From NCBI GenBank assembly GCA_002376885.1, contig DFOW01000001.1, positions 79,381-143,380 on the forward strand: a stretch of DNA of 64,000 bases. The letters are read 5' to 3'. Position numbers and translations under genes: made by a program. This document shows, one piece after another, positions 8,162 through 44,213 of the stretch. Origin of the DNA: Patescibacteria group bacterium UBA3531. GTDB lineage: Bacteria > Patescibacteriota > Minisyncoccia > Phycocordibacterales > UBA3531. The notes under the pieces are model-generated. The model ran no database searches. It saw only the letters and a program-made list of their open reading frames with translations, and was not told the origin of the DNA. Position 1 is the first letter of the stretch. Each line of letters begins with the position of its first letter.

Positions 8162-8545
8162 TTATTTGAACCATCCTTTGACTGACCGTGGGATTCCCTG
8201 CACAAAGAAGAGGGCAAGTGGTGCACCAATATTGGCAAATTGTTCAACAAAATCCCAAATCGGTTCTCCTGCAAGTGGGCGAAGCACAGCTGTCCATGTC
8301 CCCCAAAGAGTCATCCATAAGAGAAGAATTGGGATAAGCCGTACCAATACAAGAACCGCAAGGATTATATCCATAATTCCAATAAGTTGGAGCAATTGTG
8401 TGATTTGAGCAGGATCAGTCATTCCTATAACGTTGAAGTATGGGAACCATCCCTCCTTTCCTTGAAGCGCAAATACTCCATGCCCCAAAAATTCTCCCGC
8501 AACAGTAATACGCAAGGTCCATTCAACCTTTTTTTCGTTTGTCAT
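8162..8545 (-). CDS. Hypothetical integral membrane protein (about 4 TM)
   Basis: 127-aa ORF with native low GC and hydrophobic helices. Downstream hairpin aaaaatcctacc...ggcaggattttt (8103..8131). Confidence 0.6.
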   Translation of the reverse strand: MTNEKKVEWTLRITVAGEFLGHGVFALQGKEGWFPYFNVIGMTDPAQITQLLQLIGIMDIILAVLVLVRLIPILLLWMTLWGTWTAVLRPLAGEPIWDFVEQFANIGAPLALFFVQGIPRSVKGWFK

Positions 8546-8950
8546 AGGCTATGTAAAATTATGCTAATAATATTTTATCGACCTCTTTAAAAAAGAGAGG
8601 GAAAATTCACACCTTTATTATATCAAGCGCTCATGATCTAAAAACCAAAAAATCCCCTCTTTATGGGGATTTTTGTCCAGTGTGGTGGACCACACTATCC
8701 CGTCACTCGAACCGCTCCAATTCGCCCTGGTGTCGAACTTCGTCATCCTCTTTGGGACGAGAAGATGCTCGAGATGCAACGCAAATGGATTTGGGAATTG
8801 AATCCGAGATTAGAGAAAGATGAAGTTGAAGCTGCCGTCTATGCGTGGCTTGCGTATGCGGAGTATGTGGTAAGGTTGGTGGAGAGAAAGTGAACCAAAG
8901 AGAAAGGCCCGACCGAGGTCTGACCAATCTCTTGGTTGACCTGTCGGGCC

Positions 8951-9452
8951 CTACTTGTCCAGGTCGACGAACGAGGCGTCGATGAGCGTCAGGTACTCGA
9001 GGTCCGGACTGACGTCGCCGATGACGTTGCCGAGCTCGCCCACATCATCCGGGACGCCGACCACCAGGCACTCGAGGCCCATGTAGGTCACCTTCATGCC
9101 GGACTTGAGAGTCTGGCCCTTGAGCTGCTTGAGCACCTCGCGGGGAATCCCCTCGTCATCACCCCAGGCGAACGCGCGCGGAATCCCGAACCTCTCCAGA
9201 ACGCTGCTCCAGAAGAGCTCCGCGTCCCACTCCTCGTACTCCCCATCGGGATACTCCTCGAGACTTGTGACACGGGCAGCTTCCCGAAGAACGCTCGCCG
9301 GGATGCACGGACGGGTCGTCTCGTCGTCGGTGAAGAGACTCGGGAACCCCTTCTGGAGACCCTCGAGGGGTCGCCTTGTCGTCGGTCAAGCTCACGCAGA
9401 GCCTGAGCCACGGATCGGAGACCTTGCAGATTTCCTGCCAATTCCTGTTCAT
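8951..9452 (-). pseudogene. High-GC gene of unknown function, apparently frameshifted
   Basis: The minus-strand frame reading ...EEYPDGEYEEWDAELFWSSVLERFGIPRAFAWGDDEGIPREVLKQLKGQTLKSGMKVTYMGLECLVVGVPDDVGELGNVIGDVSPDLEYLTLIDASFVDLDK* has almost exclusively G/C at third positions. The only upstream ATG (9452, MNRNWQEICKVSDPWLRL) lies in a different frame. Confidence 0.45.
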
Positions 9453-9588
9453 GGTCCTTCTCTCTCCTTCCTGAATCCGCCAGCCGAAGCTGGTGTGTTC
9501 AGGTAGAGAGAGAAATCACTACCTGGGTGGATAGTGACACAGTATTGTGTATTTGTCTAGACTACGAGATTCACCGTAGTGACGATAG

Positions 9589-9662
9589 TGGACCCGACTG
9601 GATTCGAACCAGCGACCTCCTGAGTGCAAAACAGGTGCTCTAGCCAACTGAGCTACGGGCCC
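9589..9662 (-). tRNA. tRNA-Ala (anticodon UGC)
   Basis: Minus-strand sequence GGGCCCGUAGCUCAGUUGGCUAGAGCACCUGUUUUGCACUCAGGAGGUCGCUGGUUCGAAUCCAGUCGGGUCCA. Acceptor stem carries the G3:U70 wobble that is the Ala identity element, T-loop GGUUCGAAUCC, anticodon loop UUUGCAC. CCA is not encoded. Confidence 0.85.
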
Positions 9663-15152: not shown

Positions 15153-16295
15153 TTGAGACATCGAAGTCGAGTCATGTTTTTTATGGCCGTAGTGGTCATG
15201 ATGAACATCGGTGCAAACGATTGCCAGAACAACCAGGCACCGGTCCCCTCTCCGCTTCCTCAGCCTCTCATGACGATGCTTGCAGGAAACGATATGGAGG
15301 TTCGTGGGAACGACTGCCCTGTCACCTCGACATTTGTTGAGGCAAGCTGGAACGGAGGCCCTTGGATCTACGTCGGCTCATGCACCCTCGGTGAGTACGA
15401 AGGATTTCTGCCTCCCCAGGGGGCTGGCCATGGAATCCTCGCCATCCGAGACAACACAGGGCAGATCCTCCGAACGACACTTTCTGTCGGATGGGGTCTA
15501 CCGATCGAGATCACCGGCCAGTCGAATGCCACTGGCCTCATGGAAACCTTGATCAATGCGATCTCTTCGCTTGCTTCGGTATTCATGGTCGGCCACCAGA
15601 ACGAGGCCGAATCCATCAAGCACGCCGACGATCGCTTCACCGACCACGGCAATGGCTCTGCGTGGCCCCTCCTTGCAGATGAAATCATTGGACAGACAGG
15701 GCTTCCTGTCATGTTCATTTCTTCACCGGTGGGGGCAACATCAGTCAGCCAGTGGGTTCCTGGTGGGAATCTTCGCGAAAGGGCGAAGGATCTGAGAATG
15801 ACCGCAACGAATGATTGTTCGGCTGCAGACATCTTCTACCAGGGAGAGAACGAACCTGTATTCGCCTCTAATCCCACGATCGATCCCGAAACGGGTCTGA
15901 CTTTTGGCGAGCTGTGGCTCGCCTCAATCGGGGGAGATTTGAAGCAGTACTACAAGGGAGAGCTCTTCAAGATCGCAGACGATCACATGAATGCGGGGTG
16001 TGGAGGAACTCCGCTTGTCATCGTCCAGATTGGAGACAATACTGCCAACCAGAATCCAGGTATCCAGGGCTTCATCCAAGAGGTTCGGGACGCCCAGTAC
16101 GAGGCAGCAATCGAGCACCCCAACATCCACCTGGGAGCCTGTACTGCCGGTCTTCCGGTCCCTGACGGTCTCCACCTGGGCGATGATGCTCGAGAGGAAT
16201 TCGTTTCGCGACTCATGAAAGGCTTGGCGCCAGTGCTCTGGGGTGGGCCGGTTCCAACCGACGAAGAGCTTGGATGCACGCCTCCGCAAGTCTAG
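15153..16295 (+). CDS. SASA/SGNH-type carbohydrate esterase encoded in a high-GC island (homologous to the N-terminal domain of the adjacent giant protein)
   Basis: Blocks ITGQSNATG, SAWPLLADEIIGQTGLPVMFISSPVGATSVSQW, IFYQGENEP, VPDGLHLGDD. Strong G/C third-position bias. The start may instead be the Met at 15174. GC-rich terminator follows the stop. Confidence 0.7.
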   Translation: MRHRSRVMFFMAVVVMMNIGANDCQNNQAPVPSPLPQPLMTMLAGNDMEVRGNDCPVTSTFVEASWNGGPWIYVGSCTLGEYEGFLPPQGAGHGILAIRDNTGQILRTTLSVGWGLPIEITGQSNATGLMETLINAISSLASVFMVGHQNEAESIKHADDRFTDHGNGSAWPLLADEIIGQTGLPVMFISSPVGATSVSQWVPGGNLRERAKDLRMTATNDCSAADIFYQGENEPVFASNPTIDPETGLTFGELWLASIGGDLKQYYKGELFKIADDHMNAGCGGTPLVIVQIGDNTANQNPGIQGFIQEVRDAQYEAAIEHPNIHLGACTAGLPVPDGLHLGDDAREEFVSRLMKGLAPVLWGGPVPTDEELGCTPPQV

Positions 16296-20557: not shown

Positions 20558-20953
20558 ATGAGCGAACCCGATGGAAAAGTTCAATTGCCACCCTCTCCAC
20601 CTCTCGACTTGCACCTGCTCATTAGCAGTGTGCTCATGCAGGAAGCGGAAGAACTCCTGGAGGAGCTCGGCATCGTAGAGAAGCTCGAACCCTTCATTGC
20701 GAGCGCCCTCGAGTCGATCGAACGATCTCGACAGGCAGAGATCGCAAATACCAGGGAGAAGCTCGGGCCGTTCTTCAAGATCGACACGGAAGTTCCGGAG
20801 CCGGTGCGGGGAGTTTCTCCTCCTCCTGCACACCTGCTCGAGAAGATGGGGGGACTTCGGAAGCCCGCCCTCGAGCGACTCGGCGAGCTTCTCGGTCGTG
20901 CACTCAAGCACAGGATCGATGCACGCTACCGAACGATCGGAAGCACTGCCTAG
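20558..20953 (+). CDS. Hypothetical protein in a high-GC patch between uvrC and uvrA
   Basis: 131-aa ORF with G/C-biased third positions, acidic helical sequence, followed by a GC-rich terminator. Confidence 0.45.
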   Translation: MSEPDGKVQLPPSPPLDLHLLISSVLMQEAEELLEELGIVEKLEPFIASALESIERSRQAEIANTREKLGPFFKIDTEVPEPVRGVSPPPAHLLEKMGGLRKPALERLGELLGRALKHRIDARYRTIGSTA

Positions 20954-35490: not shown

Positions 35491-35964
35491 ATGCCGAAAG
35501 CAGCCGAAGAGTACATGATCGAGACGCTCGCCCGAGGGATGAGGGTCTTCGCCCTCATCGCAACGAGTCCCTCGAACAGCATCGGGGTGACCGAGATCGC
35601 GACGACGTTGGATCTTCAAAAGAACAACGTCTTCCGGATCCTGAAGACGCTCGAGGTGGAAGGCTTGGTCTCCCACAACGGCGAGACCGATGCCGACAAG
35701 TGCCGCTACGGGCTGGGGCCCAAGGCCATCGAGCTCGGCGAGTGGCTCCTCATCCACGCCGACAAGACCGTGGTCGAGGTGGTCGAGTTCTTCAAGGGAG
35801 CCGATGGGCCGGGGAGCGTGAAGCTCACGGCAACAGCTCGCGTCGAGAACCGTGACGACGTCGAGGAGGACCTCCGGATGGAGGCGAGCGAGCTCGCCGG
35901 ACGTCTGGCGGTCACGCCCGACGAGGGGCTCGAAGTCGTTCCCGCAACCGGGACCGACGGCTAG
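35491..35964 (+). CDS. Truncated IclR-family transcriptional regulator (N-terminal HTH only), in a high-GC patch
   Basis: VFALIATSPSNSIGVTEIATTLDLQKNNVFRILKTLEVEGLVS matches the IclR HTH_IclR domain. GC-rich codons. Followed by a GC-rich hairpin plus ttctttct. Confidence 0.6.
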   Translation: MPKAAEEYMIETLARGMRVFALIATSPSNSIGVTEIATTLDLQKNNVFRILKTLEVEGLVSHNGETDADKCRYGLGPKAIELGEWLLIHADKTVVEVVEFFKGADGPGSVKLTATARVENRDDVEEDLRMEASELAGRLAVTPDEGLEVVPATGTDG

Positions 35965-39847: not shown

Positions 39848-39887
39848 GCTACGTAACATGTTACGTAGCAAGCTACGTAACAAAACG
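39848..39887. promoter_or_regulatory. Perfect 22-nt palindrome gctacgtaacatgttacgtagc followed by a third half-site copy (agctacgtaac); candidate operator upstream of the XRE gene
   Basis: Read directly. Shares the TACGTAA core with the 28652 palindrome. Followed by hairpin aaggccacc...ggtggcctt (39890..39930). Confidence 0.5.
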
Positions 39888-40004
39888 AACAAAGGCCACC
39901 GGAACTCCTCAAAGAGAGTTTGGTGGCCTTAGTTGACGTGCCTTTCCAGCTCACGTCTTTTTCTAAGTTTCCCCAGTGCCTTTGCCGATAAACAATAGTA
40001 GTAT

Positions 40005-40226
40005 ATGAAGAAGTCAATCCACACAAAAGAATACGCTTACTTCGTCGAGAAATTGCGAAAAGCGCGCCTTGAAGCAGGATTGACGCAGGTTCAGGTTGCT
40101 AAGAAGCTAAAACGTCCGCAGTCGTATATCTCCAATGTGGAATCAGGACAACAGCGTGTCGATGTTGTCGAATTGCAAAAATTTGCAAAAATGTACGGCA
40201 AGGACGTAAATTACTTTTTTAAATAA
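40005..40226 (+). CDS. XRE-family helix-turn-helix transcriptional regulator
   Basis: LRKARLEAGLTQVQVAKKLKRPQSYISNVESGQQ is a canonical Cro/C1-type HTH. Confidence 0.8.
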   Translation: MKKSIHTKEYAYFVEKLRKARLEAGLTQVQVAKKLKRPQSYISNVESGQQRVDVVELQKFAKMYGKDVNYFFK

Positions 40227-40234
40227 TTTTAATT

Positions 40235-40624
40235 ATGTTTAACAAGAAATTCATTGGTTCTACTGTTGCCCTGGTGGTGGGAGTCCTTGCAATCGTTGCG
40301 GGATTAGCTGAACCATCAAGTACAATGTTTGCAGGTATTTATATCGTACTTGGCTCGCTAGCTTACAGGTCACTAAAAAAGAGAAAGTTGGGCATGGTTC
40401 AGGATTCAAAAATCCGTCTAATTCTTGAGGTTGTGGGCATACTGGCAATTATTTTGCTAATACTCATGCAAAACAATCTACAGGCAAATATTGTGAACGA
40501 TCCGTTTCCAAATATCGTAATACCGCTATGGGTTATAGTTGCTTATCTTGTCGTTTACTTCCGCGGTACAAAAAGTAGCGAAGAAAAGGAAGCAAAAATT
40601 GAGGACTCCACTCAAACTACTTAA
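40235..40624 (+). CDS. Hypothetical membrane protein (4 TM)
   Basis: 129 aa, four hydrophobic helices; starts with MFN like the next gene. Confidence 0.55.
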   Translation: MFNKKFIGSTVALVVGVLAIVAGLAEPSSTMFAGIYIVLGSLAYRSLKKRKLGMVQDSKIRLILEVVGILAIILLILMQNNLQANIVNDPFPNIVIPLWVIVAYLVVYFRGTKSSEEKEAKIEDSTQTT

Positions 40625-40634
40625 ACCAAAAGTT

Positions 40635-41321
40635 ATGTTTAACTTTTCTACAAAAGAACAACGAAAGCTTGATGAGCAGCTATATTCTGTTGTAACTGAC
40701 GAAATTGAGCGTAACGAAATATATAAACCACTTTGGACAAAAGCTCTTGCCGATTCTGATAATGACAAGCAACGAGCGCAGGCTTTATATATCAAATATC
40801 GAGTTCAAAAGTTGAAAGATGAAATGCGTTTTGAAAAAGAACGGGAGCAAGCAAATGAGCGTGCTCGGGTTGCCACTGAAAACAAAAGGGTGAAATCTGA
40901 AAGAAGTATAACCACATTGGAAACTACAACATCTCATTTGCTATCCAGTTTCAAATGGCTAACAGCGATTATGCTAATCCTCGGGGCTATAGGTCTATTT
41001 TTGTCATACATAACAATTTCAGTCAGTTACGATTACAGTTGGTGGGTTCTTTCGGGTTTGAGTGTATTGCTTTTTGTGCTCGGCGGATACCTACTTTTTG
41101 ATTGTTTTAGAATTTCAAAAATAAGTGATCACAAAATACTCAAAAAGAAATTGAATACGTCTTTCTTAATTCTTATACCATTCTCACTTGTGGGAACAAT
41201 CATAGGAATAATCATGCCGTTGGTTGCACTGTTTATGTTTATAAGCTTTGTTGCATTAGTTATTCACGCAATCAAATTCAATCGTGCATTCAATTATGCA
41301 AAAAGAAATGGTTTGATATGA
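40635..41321 (+). CDS. Hypothetical membrane protein with a charged N-terminal cytoplasmic domain (LWTKALADSDNDKQRAQALYIKYRV) and a 4-TM C-terminus
   Basis: Start taken at the internal ATG (MFNFSTKEQ...) to avoid an 85-nt overlap with the upstream gene. The N-terminal region resembles a recurring G-x-LW-KAL-x-GD-x-KA-x-YI-x-RV module of unknown function. Confidence 0.5.
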   Translation: MFNFSTKEQRKLDEQLYSVVTDEIERNEIYKPLWTKALADSDNDKQRAQALYIKYRVQKLKDEMRFEKEREQANERARVATENKRVKSERSITTLETTTSHLLSSFKWLTAIMLILGAIGLFLSYITISVSYDYSWWVLSGLSVLLFVLGGYLLFDCFRISKISDHKILKKKLNTSFLILIPFSLVGTIIGIIMPLVALFMFISFVALVIHAIKFNRAFNYAKRNGLI

Positions 41322-41334
41322 CACTGTATAGATA

Positions 41335-42435
41335 ATGAAATGGATATTTGACTGGCTCATTAACTTATTTGGCAAGAAAGACATCGCACGAGATACGGAC
41401 GAGAGTTTTTTTCGTCCGATTTTGTTTTTGTTCCCTAATATTCTCAAAGAAAGCGTGTCGTCAGAAACGGATGTAAAAGATTGGCAAAAAGATTATCTCT
41501 CGAAAAACAAAAACATTGAAAAATATATCTTCAACGCCTGCGAAGCATTACAGGTCTGCGGAATCTCTTATACAAAATACAAGAAAGAACTCAAACGTTA
41601 CTCGGATGAAGAACTCAATAAAGGCGCGGGAGAAATTGTTGGCAGAAACTTTGAAATTGAAGCCCGGCTAATGCTAAGGCGAATGCTGGAGCTGTATGTG
41701 GAAAGCTGGCATTTCAAAGAAATCAAGAACGATAAAGAAACGATCTTCAGGCACTATTTCTTACTCCGAAATCTCAAAGCTTTTTATAGTAGAAAAACCA
41801 ACACAAAAGATTTTTGTGATTTTGATTTGGAATTTGATACCAAGGCTATTTCAGAAATCCGTACGGCGTTAAATAACTTATCTGTCCAAAATCCTTTTTA
41901 CCTAACGAATAATAAAGATCCGAACAAAGACAGTGATGTAAAAAAGTTGTTCAAACATTTTCGCGATTTGCTTGTGGAAGCTATGCCAAAAATGACGGAC
42001 GGACTGAGGGAAATGGTTGGTGAGTCATACCAGCTATATGCCGAAACCAGTGAAGTTGTTCATGGATTTTCGGGAGGACCGAATTTCAATCTACGCAATT
42101 ATCATCAAGAAATAACTGCGCTTTATGCAAGATCCGCGGTACTTGCTTCAAACATTTTGAAATATCTTGTAGTTATCGGCGATAACCAGATAAGCAATAC
42201 TGAAATAAAAGAAGCTATTAATGGCTTAAGAACTGACGATTTGCCTCATAGCTTCATGTTTGAAGTTGGAGATAAGGTTTTGGTGCTAGGGCAAATCAAA
42301 GCAGAAATTACGGAAATATCGCAATCAAAATATGGCTGCAAGAAATATAAAGTTAAATATAACGACAAGCGAGAAGATTGGAGTTGGTCTTTTGAGCGCG
42401 AATGGTTTTTATTGAAAGAGCTGACGAAGCTGTAA
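41335..42435 (+). CDS. Hypothetical cytoplasmic protein (366 aa), unknown family
   Basis: Long ORF with a strong hairpin after the stop (aatccccgtcgtt...aacgacggggatt, 42448..42490). No motif recognised. Confidence 0.6.
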   Translation: MKWIFDWLINLFGKKDIARDTDESFFRPILFLFPNILKESVSSETDVKDWQKDYLSKNKNIEKYIFNACEALQVCGISYTKYKKELKRYSDEELNKGAGEIVGRNFEIEARLMLRRMLELYVESWHFKEIKNDKETIFRHYFLLRNLKAFYSRKTNTKDFCDFDLEFDTKAISEIRTALNNLSVQNPFYLTNNKDPNKDSDVKKLFKHFRDLLVEAMPKMTDGLREMVGESYQLYAETSEVVHGFSGGPNFNLRNYHQEITALYARSAVLASNILKYLVVIGDNQISNTEIKEAINGLRTDDLPHSFMFEVGDKVLVLGQIKAEITEISQSKYGCKKYKVKYNDKREDWSWSFEREWFLLKELTKL

Positions 42436-42490
42436 GAATAAGGGAGCCAATCCCCGTCGTTTACAATTTTTCCTAAAACGACGGGGATTG

Positions 42491-43300
42491 CTGTTCGCGC
42501 ACTGGGCGGGCGGGGCAAGCACAATGCATCACCACCAACTTTAACGAAGCCACAGAGCGAACACGAAGCAAGCACCGAGCAGGCATCGCGAACGAATGTG
42601 AGTGGCCAATGCGAGGTGTTTGCGAAGTGTGAGCGTGTATAAGAACTACCACCAAACGCGGAGACGGGAGCGCCTCGGGCCGACGCGAAGCTAGAAAAAG
42701 CGGAGTATGGGAAATATAATGACCTTACGGAGCTTTTGGAAGCTGAAGCGACGGACGCAAACCAAAAATTTCCTTGCGATATCTTTTCGCCTAGCGGCGG
42801 AGGGGTCTGGGGAGGAGCCGCACAAAAATGAAAGGAAATTTTTTGTGTTTGCTCGCGCGAGGTACGAGCGCGCCCGGGGCGCAGAATCAACACACAAGCG
42901 GAGCGTACGAGTTAGGTTCGCATCACCACGCGCTCCGCGCGTGCGAAGTGGGTTCGCGCAATGTGTAATAATTCTTCACAAAACGAGACATAATCCAAAT
43001 CGTGAAAATTTTTTACTTTTGCCACAGGCAAAAGTGGGTACGCAAAATCGGTTTTCGTGTTGTAGGCAAAGACGAATTCAGAGAGAACGGAGCACCGGAG
43101 CGAATGCGGAGGCGCAGGGGCGTGAGCAGAATCACCACGCCTGCCTGCCGCAGGCAGGGACTCCAATGCGTACGCGGAAGGTTGGAGCCACCACGCGCGC
43201 GGCGCGTGATTAGTTGGTCTTTGACTCGAAATAAGTTCGAGCAAAGGCTACAATATCTTCGCAACTTTTTGAGCCTTATTTCTCAACGTCTTTTTTATCC
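42491..43300. other. GC-rich noncoding tract of about 800 bp with degenerate internal repeats and many perfect short palindromes; possible large structured RNA or decayed foreign DNA
   Basis: No frame has a convincing ORF. Repeats include GCGAA(CGAA)TGTGAGYG three times, gcagaatcaMcac twice, caccacgcgc..gcgcgtg twice. Palindromes include cctgcctgc-c-gcaggcagg, ctcgcgcgag, aaaaatttcct...aggaaattttt. Confidence 0.5.
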
Positions 43301-43324
43301 ACCAAACGGGACGTTGGAACCGAG

Positions 43325-44213
43325 CTACAAAACTAATTCCCACGTTTTCCCAGAATCAGTACTTTTATAAATTTTTTCTTCATGAGTGAGAGCGTATAGA
43401 ATTTCTAAGGTATCTCCATATCCAGTGAATTCTATAATCGTATTTCCATCAAAATAGTTAGTAACTTTATTCCAAGTCATTCCACTATCTTCACTCCCCA
43501 CAAGTCCTCTTGTTGGTGAATATATGATTATGTCCTTTGAATTACTTGGATTTATGTAATAAGGCGGTCACGGCTTCCTTGCCTAAGCCGTCAAAGGCTG
43601 TAACCCATGTTATTCCACGGTCTTCACTTTTCATAACCCCCTGCCACGTAAGAGCAGTTACCTTATTCTCATCTCTTGGATCAGGATTAAATGAAAAAAC
43701 AGTAGGAATAGCATTACTACCAATACCCCATGTGGCCCCGCCATCTGAACTTACTTGAACCGACTTATCATGCCATCCGTATAATATATTTGGATTTGCG
43801 CTACTTATGCCAAGAGAATGAAAGTCAACCGGTCCATCTATACCATTTGATAACTTACTCCAAGAATCTCCCCTATCATTTGATATACGGAGCCCTAAGT
43901 TGCCTCCTGTATTTTCATTATGTCCGCTCGAATAAAGGATATTTTGATTGGTAGGATGTGCTGCAAATCCCATAAAATCACTCCCGTCTGTACCAATCAA
44001 CCCTACTTCTCCATTCATAAGTCGAAACAATCCATCGTGTGTAGCAATGTATAATTCGTCGGGATTATTTATAGTTACTTCAATACTATGAATATGATTC
44101 ACTTGACCCACGGCATCATGCTCAACTTCCCCCTCTCCAAAGTAAGAATATCCTCCGCTAACAAGAAGTATTCCACCAATTAATATGATTAGGGCTTTGA
44201 TATTTTTTTCATA
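43325..44213 (-). pseudogene. BNR/Asp-box repeat protein (Ycf48/sialidase-like beta-propeller) interrupted by two frameshifts
   Basis: Asp-box motifs SNDRGDSW, SSDGGATW, SEDRGITW lie in the 43542..44111 ORF (GTG start). SEDSGMTW and STDSGKTW continue in another frame down to 43325. A signal-peptide-like MKKISK-ALIILIGGILLVSGG sits upstream, separated by a frame change at a 7-A homopolymer (44205..44211). Confidence 0.55.

Follow-up and report, generated by a model that had tools for sequence, protein, structure and literature searches.

Small genomic islands of the SCC, SCCmec and ECC (cassette chromosome) type are moved by the Ccr large serine recombinases (LSRs), and the 3' end of a tRNA gene is a classic site at which islands insert. 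The Candidate Phyla Radiation (CPR), or Patescibacteria, have tiny genomes, and to our knowledge few mobile elements have been described from them. Here we examine a stretch of 64,000 nucleotides, called the window below, from Patescibacteria group bacterium UBA3531 (contig DFOW01000001.1, positions 79,381 to 143,380), in which a four-gene cassette is followed by GC-rich non-coding DNA, the tract. Comparison with related loci indicates that window positions 39977-43262 are probably the immobilised right-hand part of a small integrative island belonging to a CPR-wide, LSR-driven family.

The cassette was described in an initial annotation made from the letters alone, and its description holds: an XRE regulator, two membrane proteins starting with MFN and a 366-aa orphan lie on the plus strand in a window whose large open reading frames (ORFs) are otherwise nearly all on the minus strand, and a strong hairpin with a perfect 15-bp stem ends the module. 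About 800 bp of ORF-free DNA follow, with repeated motifs (GCGAAG/GTGAG-type; ATCACCAC occurs three times) and all of the palindromes that had been quoted, the long stem being 15 nt around 56 nt. The tract has a GC content of about 54%, against 38-41% for the CPR genome; within the window the GC fraction is 0.51-0.55 over 42450-43350 and 0.32-0.40 in the cassette. The window sequence is present, identical, in contigs of the marine metagenome-assembled genome (MAG) GCA_002708165.1 (PAMJ01000009.1), of one JGI assembly and of one ENA assembly. Close homologues of the window proteins are found in Paceibacterota and Giovannonibacteria, which places the host within the CPR/Patescibacteria.

The tract belongs to a conserved non-coding element. 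In a related locus, L007, two inverted 230-nt segments, 100% identical to each other and homologous to the window tract, enclose a cassette running from an XRE gene to a DUF3800 gene. We scanned species-representative genomes with a pattern for the long hairpin that L007 and the window have in common (CCAAAAATTTCCTT-N35-65-AAGGAAATTTTT) and obtained at least 119 stretches, nearly all in MAGs of Patescibacteria, with two complete genomes among the matches listed. The groups among the matches listed are Saccharibacteria and Nomura-, Kaiser-, Yanofsky-, Uhr-, Moranii-, Doudna-, Magasanik-, Gottesman- and Peribacteria; a few matches in MAGs with other labels are possibly wrongly binned contigs. 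An nhmmer search with window positions 42439-42989 gave 194 matches, in some 120 Patescibacteria loci of many classes, which fall into long copies that cover query positions 1-550 and short copies that cover only about 310-550. The part shared by both, here called A, has a left edge at CGGCGAAGC / CGGCGAAGCAAAACC and a right edge at ...CACCGC in an alignment of 67 copies, and the part before it in long copies is called 5'half. Window positions 42439-42979 align over their full length with 42 long copies at 70-89% identity and with sharp boundaries. At its end, A carries a conserved sigma-70-like motif (TGCGAA, 18 nt, then TAATAC, TAATAA or TACAAT) that points outward across the junction core described below.

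The hairpin pattern had no match in IMG/VR, the tract had no blastn match among the phage genomes of INPHARED, and PHROG matched only the XRE protein of the cassette; the suggestion of a prophage remnant in the initial annotation thus receives no support. That annotation had treated lack of conservation as a sign against its reading, and the tract proved to be conserved across Patescibacteria loci, which marks it as a functional part of the element. Full-text searches of the literature on CPR, serine recombinases and inverted repeats turned up no description of it. An 18-mer, GCGAGGTACGAGCGCGCC, was tried as a family marker and discarded: its single match in IMG/VR and 119 matches in metagenome contigs all lacked the hairpin, many were in soil-type contigs, and chance appears to account for them. 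The element often lies within 100 nt of the end of a contig or locus (for example in L138, L143, L150, L162, L183, L211 and L252), as fits assemblies that break at a multi-copy repeat, so that copies per genome are probably underestimated.

Intact islands in relatives have a recurrent architecture. From one end to the other the usual layout is tRNA, B', LSR gene, B.A, XRE gene, variable cargo, 5'half.A and host DNA. We found 43 LSR ORFs with E<1e-5 in the homologous loci, with Resolvase, Recombinase and Zn_ribbon_recom domains, and in at least 19 cases the LSR ORF lies 17-374 nt downstream of a short copy on the same strand. On the other side of the short copy stands a divergent XRE gene, across a promoter/operator-like spacer of 80-100 nt. 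By tblastn, homologues of the window XRE occur in 36 fetched loci at 52-97% identity, with weaker ones down to 28%; in the loci inspected, the close homologues (52-97%) sit directly at the inner edge of the recombinase-proximal repeat and diverge from it, and the copy in L232 is 97% identical to that of the window.

An inverted partner is found for 20 of the 42 long copies, across 1.2-4.1 kb of unrelated cargo, and only three long copies lack one despite at least 5 kb of available sequence. Within a locus the A copies (typically about 240 nt) are 96-100% identical in most cases, over 200-270 nt; between loci A differs by 10-30%. In 11 loci the body of the LSR gene stands between inverted copies of another repeat, B (131-134 nt, with mostly 98-100% identity): one of them follows A directly in the central A.B copy upstream of the LSR gene, and the other, B', is located at the LSR ORF's 3' end. 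The cargo is varied and includes an APH phosphotransferase, Fic, AbiEi/AbiEii, an ABC transporter set, a deaminase, an MvaI/BcnI endonuclease with methylases and a LexA-S24-methylase fusion; one further cargo protein looks by eye like a P-type ATPase.

One end of these islands commonly coincides with a tRNA gene. At the A/B, A/host and host/B junctions (a slash marks the crossover), which were compared in the same register in eight loci, only a core of 2-9 nt is common, for example CAC-AAA, CCGC-A or CACC-AAAT. The host side of the host/B junction is the T-arm and acceptor 3' end of a tRNA. An intact tRNA gene (Ala, Ser, Leu, Gln or Glu) that ends at the outer edge of B' or, where the B pair was unmapped, at the LSR ORF's 3' end was called by ARAGORN in 13 of 20 loci; with tRNAs merely near the LSR-distal end counted as well, the number is 14 of 20. 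Over its last 30 or so nucleotides, A resembles the tRNA 3' end found next to B', as if in imitation of it; in L175, tRNA-Glu reads GGGGTTCGATTCCCCGTAGGGTCAC/AAA and the end of A reads AAGTTCGCGCAAGGGTTAGTATTTCTTCAC/AAA. Because the junctions have a common short core and the tRNA 3' end lies at host/B, they can be interpreted as attachment (att) sites, and the simplest reading of the sequences is that A/B would be attP, tRNA/B attL and A/host attR of an island integrated by the LSR.

Two observations at these junctions concern single loci. In L007 a repeat of 203 nt lies between tRNA-Glu and B', and the island is bracketed by it in direct orientation (2669-2871 and 8402-8604, with a third partial copy at 9431-9482); a palindrome of 40 nt forms the start of the repeat, and its last part copies the 3' end of tRNA-Glu, which suggests serial insertions at one tRNA. 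In L165, L205, L175, L207, L164 and L244, the LSR ORF runs through B' into or through the antisense strand of the adjacent tRNA, so that the called ORF contains the putative att core in those loci; integration may alter the recombinase C-terminus, or else these ORF ends are artefacts.

Long inverted repeats beside a recombinase gene might also be an invertible switch, a shufflon- or Gin/Hin-like inverton in which the LSR flips the cargo and its own gene and the window preserves the boundary of a frozen switch. The near-identity of the A repeats around the cargo and of the B repeats (131 nt) around the LSR gene would suit such a system, as would the adjacent recombinase gene, found also in Gin/Cin systems, and the occurrence of both arrangements of 5'half, which is LSR-distal in most loci and LSR-proximal in L218 and L172. 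However, the outer ends of the repeats are a tRNA 3' end and its imitation, a signature of integration and not of a pure inversion switch; the two arrangements are found in different lineages only, never in one population; homologous recombination between 240-nt repeats gives the same pattern without any dedicated function; and in the window, which has one repeat only, nothing can invert. We accordingly regard a dedicated switch as improbable. The near-identity of partner repeats implies that they recombine frequently, through the LSR or by homologous recombination, and promoter/operator duplication, a flip-flop and 2-micron-like amplification are possibilities for its purpose. We had read the paired copies first as the terminal inverted repeats of a transposon and then as a pure inverton, before the tRNA junctions favoured integration. 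An integron was rejected since the recombinase of related loci is a serine recombinase, not IntI, and the repeats, with a length of about 240 nt, are inverted, unlike attC sites, which are direct.

Set against these intact islands, the tract in the window is a composite of 5'half, repeat A, a unique spacer and a second, 5'-truncated A (Table 1). Within 5'half a stretch at about 42555-42640 is poorly conserved, and the first 85 nt of 5'half are also kept downstream of the 366-aa homologue in L008-L010. The hairpin at 42448-42490 is likely to be the terminator of the cargo operon. The 3' part of A holds the promoter-like tRNA 3'-end imitation, reading TGCGAA-18 nt-TAATAA ... GGGTTCGCGC ... TTCTTCAC up to the crossover core, and the junction at 42979/42980 reads TTCTTCAC/AAAACGAGAC. 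Past AAAACGAGAC the similarity of the spacer to the B repeat of L175 stops; the spacer may be what is left of the B arm of an older element, or else it may represent attR on its host side. The second A has lost its 5' 40% and with it the long hairpin, and contains the palindrome cctgcctgccgcaggcagg at 43140-43158; by blastn it is nearest to the L143/L175/L007 subfamily. It is recognised by a direct repeat (75% over 51 nt), by a match of the family profile in nhmmer (43166-43265, E=2.3e-15) and by alignment, and a consensus scanner located its promoter-like motif at 43226-43254. It ends at 43262, and 63 nt separate this point from the stop codon of a BNR-repeat gene that runs towards it. This second copy most likely remains from an earlier insertion into this site.

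When the window was scanned with the family profile HMM, no partner repeat was found, the 3' fragment at 43166-43265 being the only match beyond the full copy. No LSR was noted among the window ORFs of at least 150 aa, nor does one adjoin the cassette, and near the tract there is no tRNA, nor is there a B' end in the window. Since LSR, tRNA and partner repeat are all missing, the window is, as judged from its sequence, an immobilised remnant and not an intact island, and the cassette would no longer be mobile by itself. On the left, blastn against L232 shows 91% identity over 39977-40226, and homology to the canonical element begins at 39977. L232 continues upstream with an operator region and an inverted A copy, neither of which the window has; in their place are a MazE/AbrB-like gene, the palindrome of 20 bp and a hairpin.

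Table 1. Features of the island remnant and its left flank in the window (positions are those of the window)
Feature	Position	Strand	Basis or remarks
MazE/SpoVT-AbrB-like gene, 52 aa	39678-39836	-	MazE_antitoxin Pfam match; no toxin gene adjoining
Perfect 20-bp palindrome CTACGTAACATGTTACGTAG	39849-39868	.	Third half-site CTACGTAAC at 39873-39881
Left edge of remnant	39977-40004	+	Last 28 nt of XRE upstream region matching the canonical element
XRE-family helix-turn-helix (HTH) regulator, 73 aa	40005-40226	+	Pfam HTH_3 PF01381, 47.6 bits (cut-off 23), E=1.7e-12
Cargo gene, 129-aa membrane protein MFNKKF...	40235-40624	+	Hydrophobic runs 6-25 and 28-44
Cargo gene, 228 aa, MFNFSTKEQ...	40635-41321	+	ATG at 40635; hydrophobic runs 108-132 and 134-155
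Cargo gene, 366-aa orphan	41335-42435	+	All-alpha domain and C-terminal SH3/Tudor-like barrel (model)
5'half of conserved non-coding element	42439-42748	+	nhmmer model positions 1-310; present in 42 long copies elsewhere
Perfect hairpin, 15-bp stem	42448-42462 / 42476-42490		Within 5'half
Repeat A, putative att arm	42749-42979	+	Alignment A2, 67 copies, sharp boundaries
Long hairpin of A, 15-nt stem enclosing 56 nt	42761-42775 / 42832-42846		
GC hairpin of A	about 42851-42875		Palindrome ctcgcgcgag at 42852-42861
Hairpin CACGCGC-TCC-GCGCGTG in A	42926-42942		
Spacer without homologue elsewhere, about 110 nt	42980-43089	+	First 10 nt AAAACGAGAC are the start of repeat B in L175
Spacer hairpin ACTTTTGCC-ACA-GGCAAAAGT	43015-43035		
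Second A, 5'-truncated, direct orientation	about 43090-43262	+	Ends ...ATATCTTCGC at the junction

The initial annotation had raised decayed foreign DNA as an explanation of the tract, and in its full form this would make the whole of it decaying or pseudogenised DNA of higher GC content, without present function, whose hairpins and repeats are relics. The final part, 42980-43262, which is unique spacer and truncated second copy, looks like what that would leave, and there are other GC-rich islands in the window. The first 540 nt do not fit: they are a full-length element with sharp, conserved boundaries, and their insertions and deletions relative to L007 are not multiples of three, with no frame conserved. 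The other GC-rich islands bear long ORFs, two of them with Pfam domain matches, and have no significant similarity to the tract. The idea therefore survives for the last 280 nt or so, which look like decay products, and is very improbable for the tract as a whole. The same indels and the lack of a conserved frame speak against the tract as coding DNA. Gene callers do place an ORF in it, as might be expected of a pseudogene: two public annotations give a 164-aa Arg-rich 'protein' in the arm (window 42719-43213; 11385-11879 in L001/L002), which is almost certainly spurious.

The annotation had also proposed a large structured RNA, and we weighed the possibility that the tract encodes, on the plus strand, a non-coding RNA of about 550 nt, for example a guide, a scaffold or a regulatory RNA, which would act together with the cassette or the recombinase. 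Several properties point that way. The tract is GC-rich and, on the plus strand, purine-rich in an AT-rich genome; it folds more stably than shuffled sequences, with z = -6.8 on the plus strand and -4.7 on the minus strand; and the short form immediately precedes the LSR gene. For 29 full-length copies, whose mean identity is 84%, RNAalifold predicted 89 pairs, 20 of them with two-sided changes, and more pairs on the plus strand than on the minus strand, with 250 G-U cells on the plus strand versus 65 on the minus strand, and among variant cells G-U outnumbered A-C by 47 to 15. The first hairpin of the element shows two-sided compensatory changes (CG 23 / UA 6, and others).

Against an RNA, no Rfam family matched the tract at the gathering score or at E<1. 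Over the whole window only a tRNA reached the gathering score, and over 42300-43450 the best matches (E 1.1-5) were to animal microRNA, long non-coding RNA and small nucleolar RNA models. Conservation is mostly of primary sequence: in the alignment of 67 A sequences 3 of 35 pairs covary. Among the 58 pairs that the predictions for the two strands share, there are as many G-U as A-C cells (7 each), so that the excess on the plus strand is put down to composition and predictor bias; the high similarity of the copies limits the power of these tests. In 20 of 130 copies the long hairpin has its interior the other way round with respect to the flanks, which a sense-specific RNA would not tolerate, and the edges of the element are recombination junctions and not ends of the kind a transcript has. 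We hold a structured RNA to be an improbable explanation. Because strand asymmetry is absent and the hairpin interior is inverted in some copies, the helices are better read as conserved DNA palindromes, which could be protein-binding sites, cruciforms or bidirectional terminators. The copies with an inverted interior of about 55 nt (GGAGGGGT..GGGGAGGAG) all belong to one subfamily (L007, L175, L193, L150, L143, L191, L242 and L136); inversions of hairpin loops are known from plastid DNA, and the inversion seen here resembles them.

Returning to the integrative island, which we consider the probable origin of the window locus, its cycle may be pictured as follows. The excised form would be a circle divided by a pair of inverted A.B repeats into one arc with the LSR gene and another with the cargo, and A/B would be the attP of this circle. 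The LSR would insert the circle into the 3' end of a tRNA gene, leaving tRNA/B as attL and A/host as attR. Recombination between the inverted A.B repeats would keep them identical, the XRE protein would act as the regulator of the island, and the outward promoter-like site at the end of A would read across the core. In the window there may have been two serial insertions at one site, the older one since reduced to a stump and the younger one having lost its side with tRNA, LSR gene and A.B by deletion. What remains of the tract could at most terminate or insulate the cargo operon, besides being an orphan att arm.

Several points weigh against this interpretation. In the static assemblies compared, we saw neither an excised circle nor an empty site, nor a single locus in both orientations, so that excision, integration and inversion are all deduced. 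Classical LSR phages show no intact attP-like copy inside the integrated element. LSRs need only about 50 bp of attP, which leaves most of the 550 nt without a functional explanation. The window has neither a tRNA nor an LSR at the cassette, so that its placement in the family depends solely on the homology of the XRE gene and of the arm. The loci are from MAGs, some of them short-read assemblies, in which identical inverted repeats can be mis-joined, and the LSR ORF ends are unreliable, several of them running through the tRNA.

We also put forward, tentatively and as a possibility that we think rather less than even, that these loci form an undescribed, CPR-wide class of 'double-att' serine-recombinase cassettes. 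Such an element would be a circle with two identical, inverted, attP-bearing A.B repeats of about 370 nt around the recombinase gene, one split at the imitated tRNA 3' end and the other kept intact as promoter/operator and flip-flop partner, and its 5'half of about 300 nt would have a role of its own, as circle origin, landing pad for cassettes or RNA cofactor.

The cargo of the window itself is accessory in character. The 366-aa protein has 52 close homologues at 43-83% identity; few are named by source, and those that are belong to the CPR, except for one partial sequence. It has no match in Pfam, PADLOC or PHROG, and a sequence profile search of the PDB found nothing. An AlphaFold (AF2) model based on 34 homologues (pLDDT 85.3, pTM 0.86) has an all-alpha domain followed by a C-terminal five-stranded barrel of SH3/Tudor-like form, and no fold in the PDB or BFVD matched it under E=1e-3. 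A profile search of 1.8 billion representative sequences gave 128 relatives, mostly distant and of 400-460 aa; ten of the distant relatives were checked in Pfam and had no match, save part of an SSF transporter in one fusion protein. IMG/VR contained no relative of the 366-aa protein.

The genes around the homologues are more informative. In L004, Fic, an EcoRI-type methylase and GmrSD lie upstream of the homologue and an HTH_36 protein and an LSR downstream; L005/L006 have NACHT, a DpnII system and an LSR; and the order in L007 is LSR, XRE, a 294-aa protein, the 366-aa homologue and DUF3800. Small HTH_3 genes precede the homologue in L012/L013 and L008-L010, and in L014 it is on one contig with a Resolvase-domain protein and an S24 peptidase. 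Upstream genes from different loci are not homologous to one another. Several contigs stop 70-380 nt after the gene, as expected if the repeat follows it. Housekeeping contexts, which would have counted against the initial annotation, were not found; the contexts are accessory or mobile. The homologues' association with LSR, restriction-modification, NACHT, Fic and DUF3800 genes, together with the place of the window XRE as backbone regulator of a recombinase-borne element, bears out the proposal that this is an accessory cassette of mobile origin. The further suggestion that it is defence-like was not confirmed, since PADLOC matched only the XRE protein, with generic HTH/control-protein models, and none of the other three. 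Given the restriction-modification, NACHT, Fic and DUF3800 genes that accompany its homologues, our weak guess is that the 366-aa protein is an accessory or conflict-related cytoplasmic protein. In L004 (7107-7574) and L005/L006 (7101-7671), the homologue is followed by about 500 nt with iteron-like repeats (AAAGTAATTCCTAC / TTAGGATTAG) and then by an HTH_36 protein of 295-301 aa and an LSR, another type of LSR island; the iteron-like stretch suggests a replication or partition module rather than A/B arms.

The other two cargo proteins were not found in the other loci compared. The 129-aa membrane protein has no family match in Pfam, PADLOC or PHROG, and the Pfam matches of the 228-aa protein, which has a soluble N-terminal part and C-terminal hydrophobic segments, are all below threshold. 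A longer TTG-initiated ORF of the 228-aa gene, from 40539, overlaps the 129-aa gene.

To the left of the cassette the initial annotation had seen a palindromic operator. The palindrome CTACGTAACATGTTACGTAG is real, but the XRE gene is its less likely target: it sits 13 nt upstream of the MazE/AbrB-like gene and outside the stretch homologous to the mobile element, so that it is probably the operator of that gene. To the right, the BNR/Sortilin-repeat gene is split into ORFs of 189 and 58 aa, 40 nt apart on the minus strand (43542-44111 and 43325-43501), both with BNR/Sortilin matches; the split is seen in all three independent assemblies and may reflect a pseudogene or frameshift. Elsewhere in the window, which is 41% GC overall, there are four other short GC-rich islands (55-68%), at 35491-35964, 15153-16295, 20558-20953 and 8900-9450. 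Unlike the tract, they bear long ORFs with GC-rich codon usage, of which one encodes an IclR-type HTH protein, one a marginal SASA-like esterase just under the Pfam cut-off, and two have no Pfam match. They look like separately acquired foreign genes, and the island at 8900-9450 lies just downstream of the 3' end of a tRNA-Ala gene (9588-9662, minus strand).

The instance in the window is an ordinary decayed island. The family that it reveals, which the literature searches did not turn up, is marked by LSR cassettes spread through the CPR, a putative att site that imitates a tRNA 3' end, duplicated inverted att arms and a conserved non-coding module of 550 nt. That this one module is kept nearly base for base from Saccharibacteria to Paceibacteria, and goes with an LSR, an XRE gene and very diverse cargo, suggests an active vehicle of gene exchange across the radiation; if the double-att class is real, such elements would be a main vehicle by which accessory genes (resistance, restriction-modification, abortive infection and toxin-antitoxin, transporters) pass between classes of Patescibacteria. 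Natural pairs of LSR and att site with defined tRNA targets are also possible recombination tools. For annotation, an orphan cassette with mystery GC-rich DNA becomes a defined island remnant, and the 164-aa ORF of the gene callers serves as a warning.

The element can be compared with four kinds of described systems. Like the large non-coding RNAs OLE, GOLLD, ROOL, HEARO/omega RNA and the IS110 bridge RNA, the tract is several hundred nucleotides long, GC-rich in an AT-rich genome, rich in hairpins and tied to mobile DNA, with one form directly upstream of a recombinase gene. It differs from them in having no Rfam match, little covariation, no strand asymmetry, a hairpin interior found both ways round and edges that are recombination junctions. 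With the yeast 2-micron plasmid (FLP/FRT) and the Gin/Cin/Hin systems the CPR islands have in common a recombinase gene associated with long identical inverted repeats and two arcs found in either relative orientation. The 2-micron plasmid, however, uses a tyrosine recombinase and flips for copy-number amplification, and Gin and Hin are small serine invertases acting on 26-bp sites, whereas the repeats of the CPR islands also hold the putative att core and their flipping is deduced from different loci, not seen directly.

Islands that target tRNA genes and carry a copy of the tRNA 3' end in attP are similar to the CPR islands in their insertion at the tRNA 3' end, in the tRNA-like crossover sequence and in the tRNA-proximal integrase gene. 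The classical ones use tyrosine integrases, whereas the CPR islands encode an LSR of Resolvase, Recombinase and Zn_ribbon_recom domains; the imitation of the tRNA is partial, with identity at the crossover of 2-9 nt, and no long direct repeat is made, except in L007 with its 203 nt, for which serial insertions are suggested. The SCC, SCCmec and ECC elements are likewise small LSR islands with highly variable cargo, inserted site-specifically at the 3' end of one conserved gene, and they too show tandem accretion and decayed remnants without recombinase at the site. They differ in their target, rlmH, and in using ccrAB, where the CPR islands have the 3' end of a tRNA gene and a single LSR. The CPR islands in turn have a fixed XRE backbone gene and a conserved non-coding arm of 550 nt, and in them A and B are each present twice, inverted and about 100% identical, with an intact A.B kept inside the integrated island.

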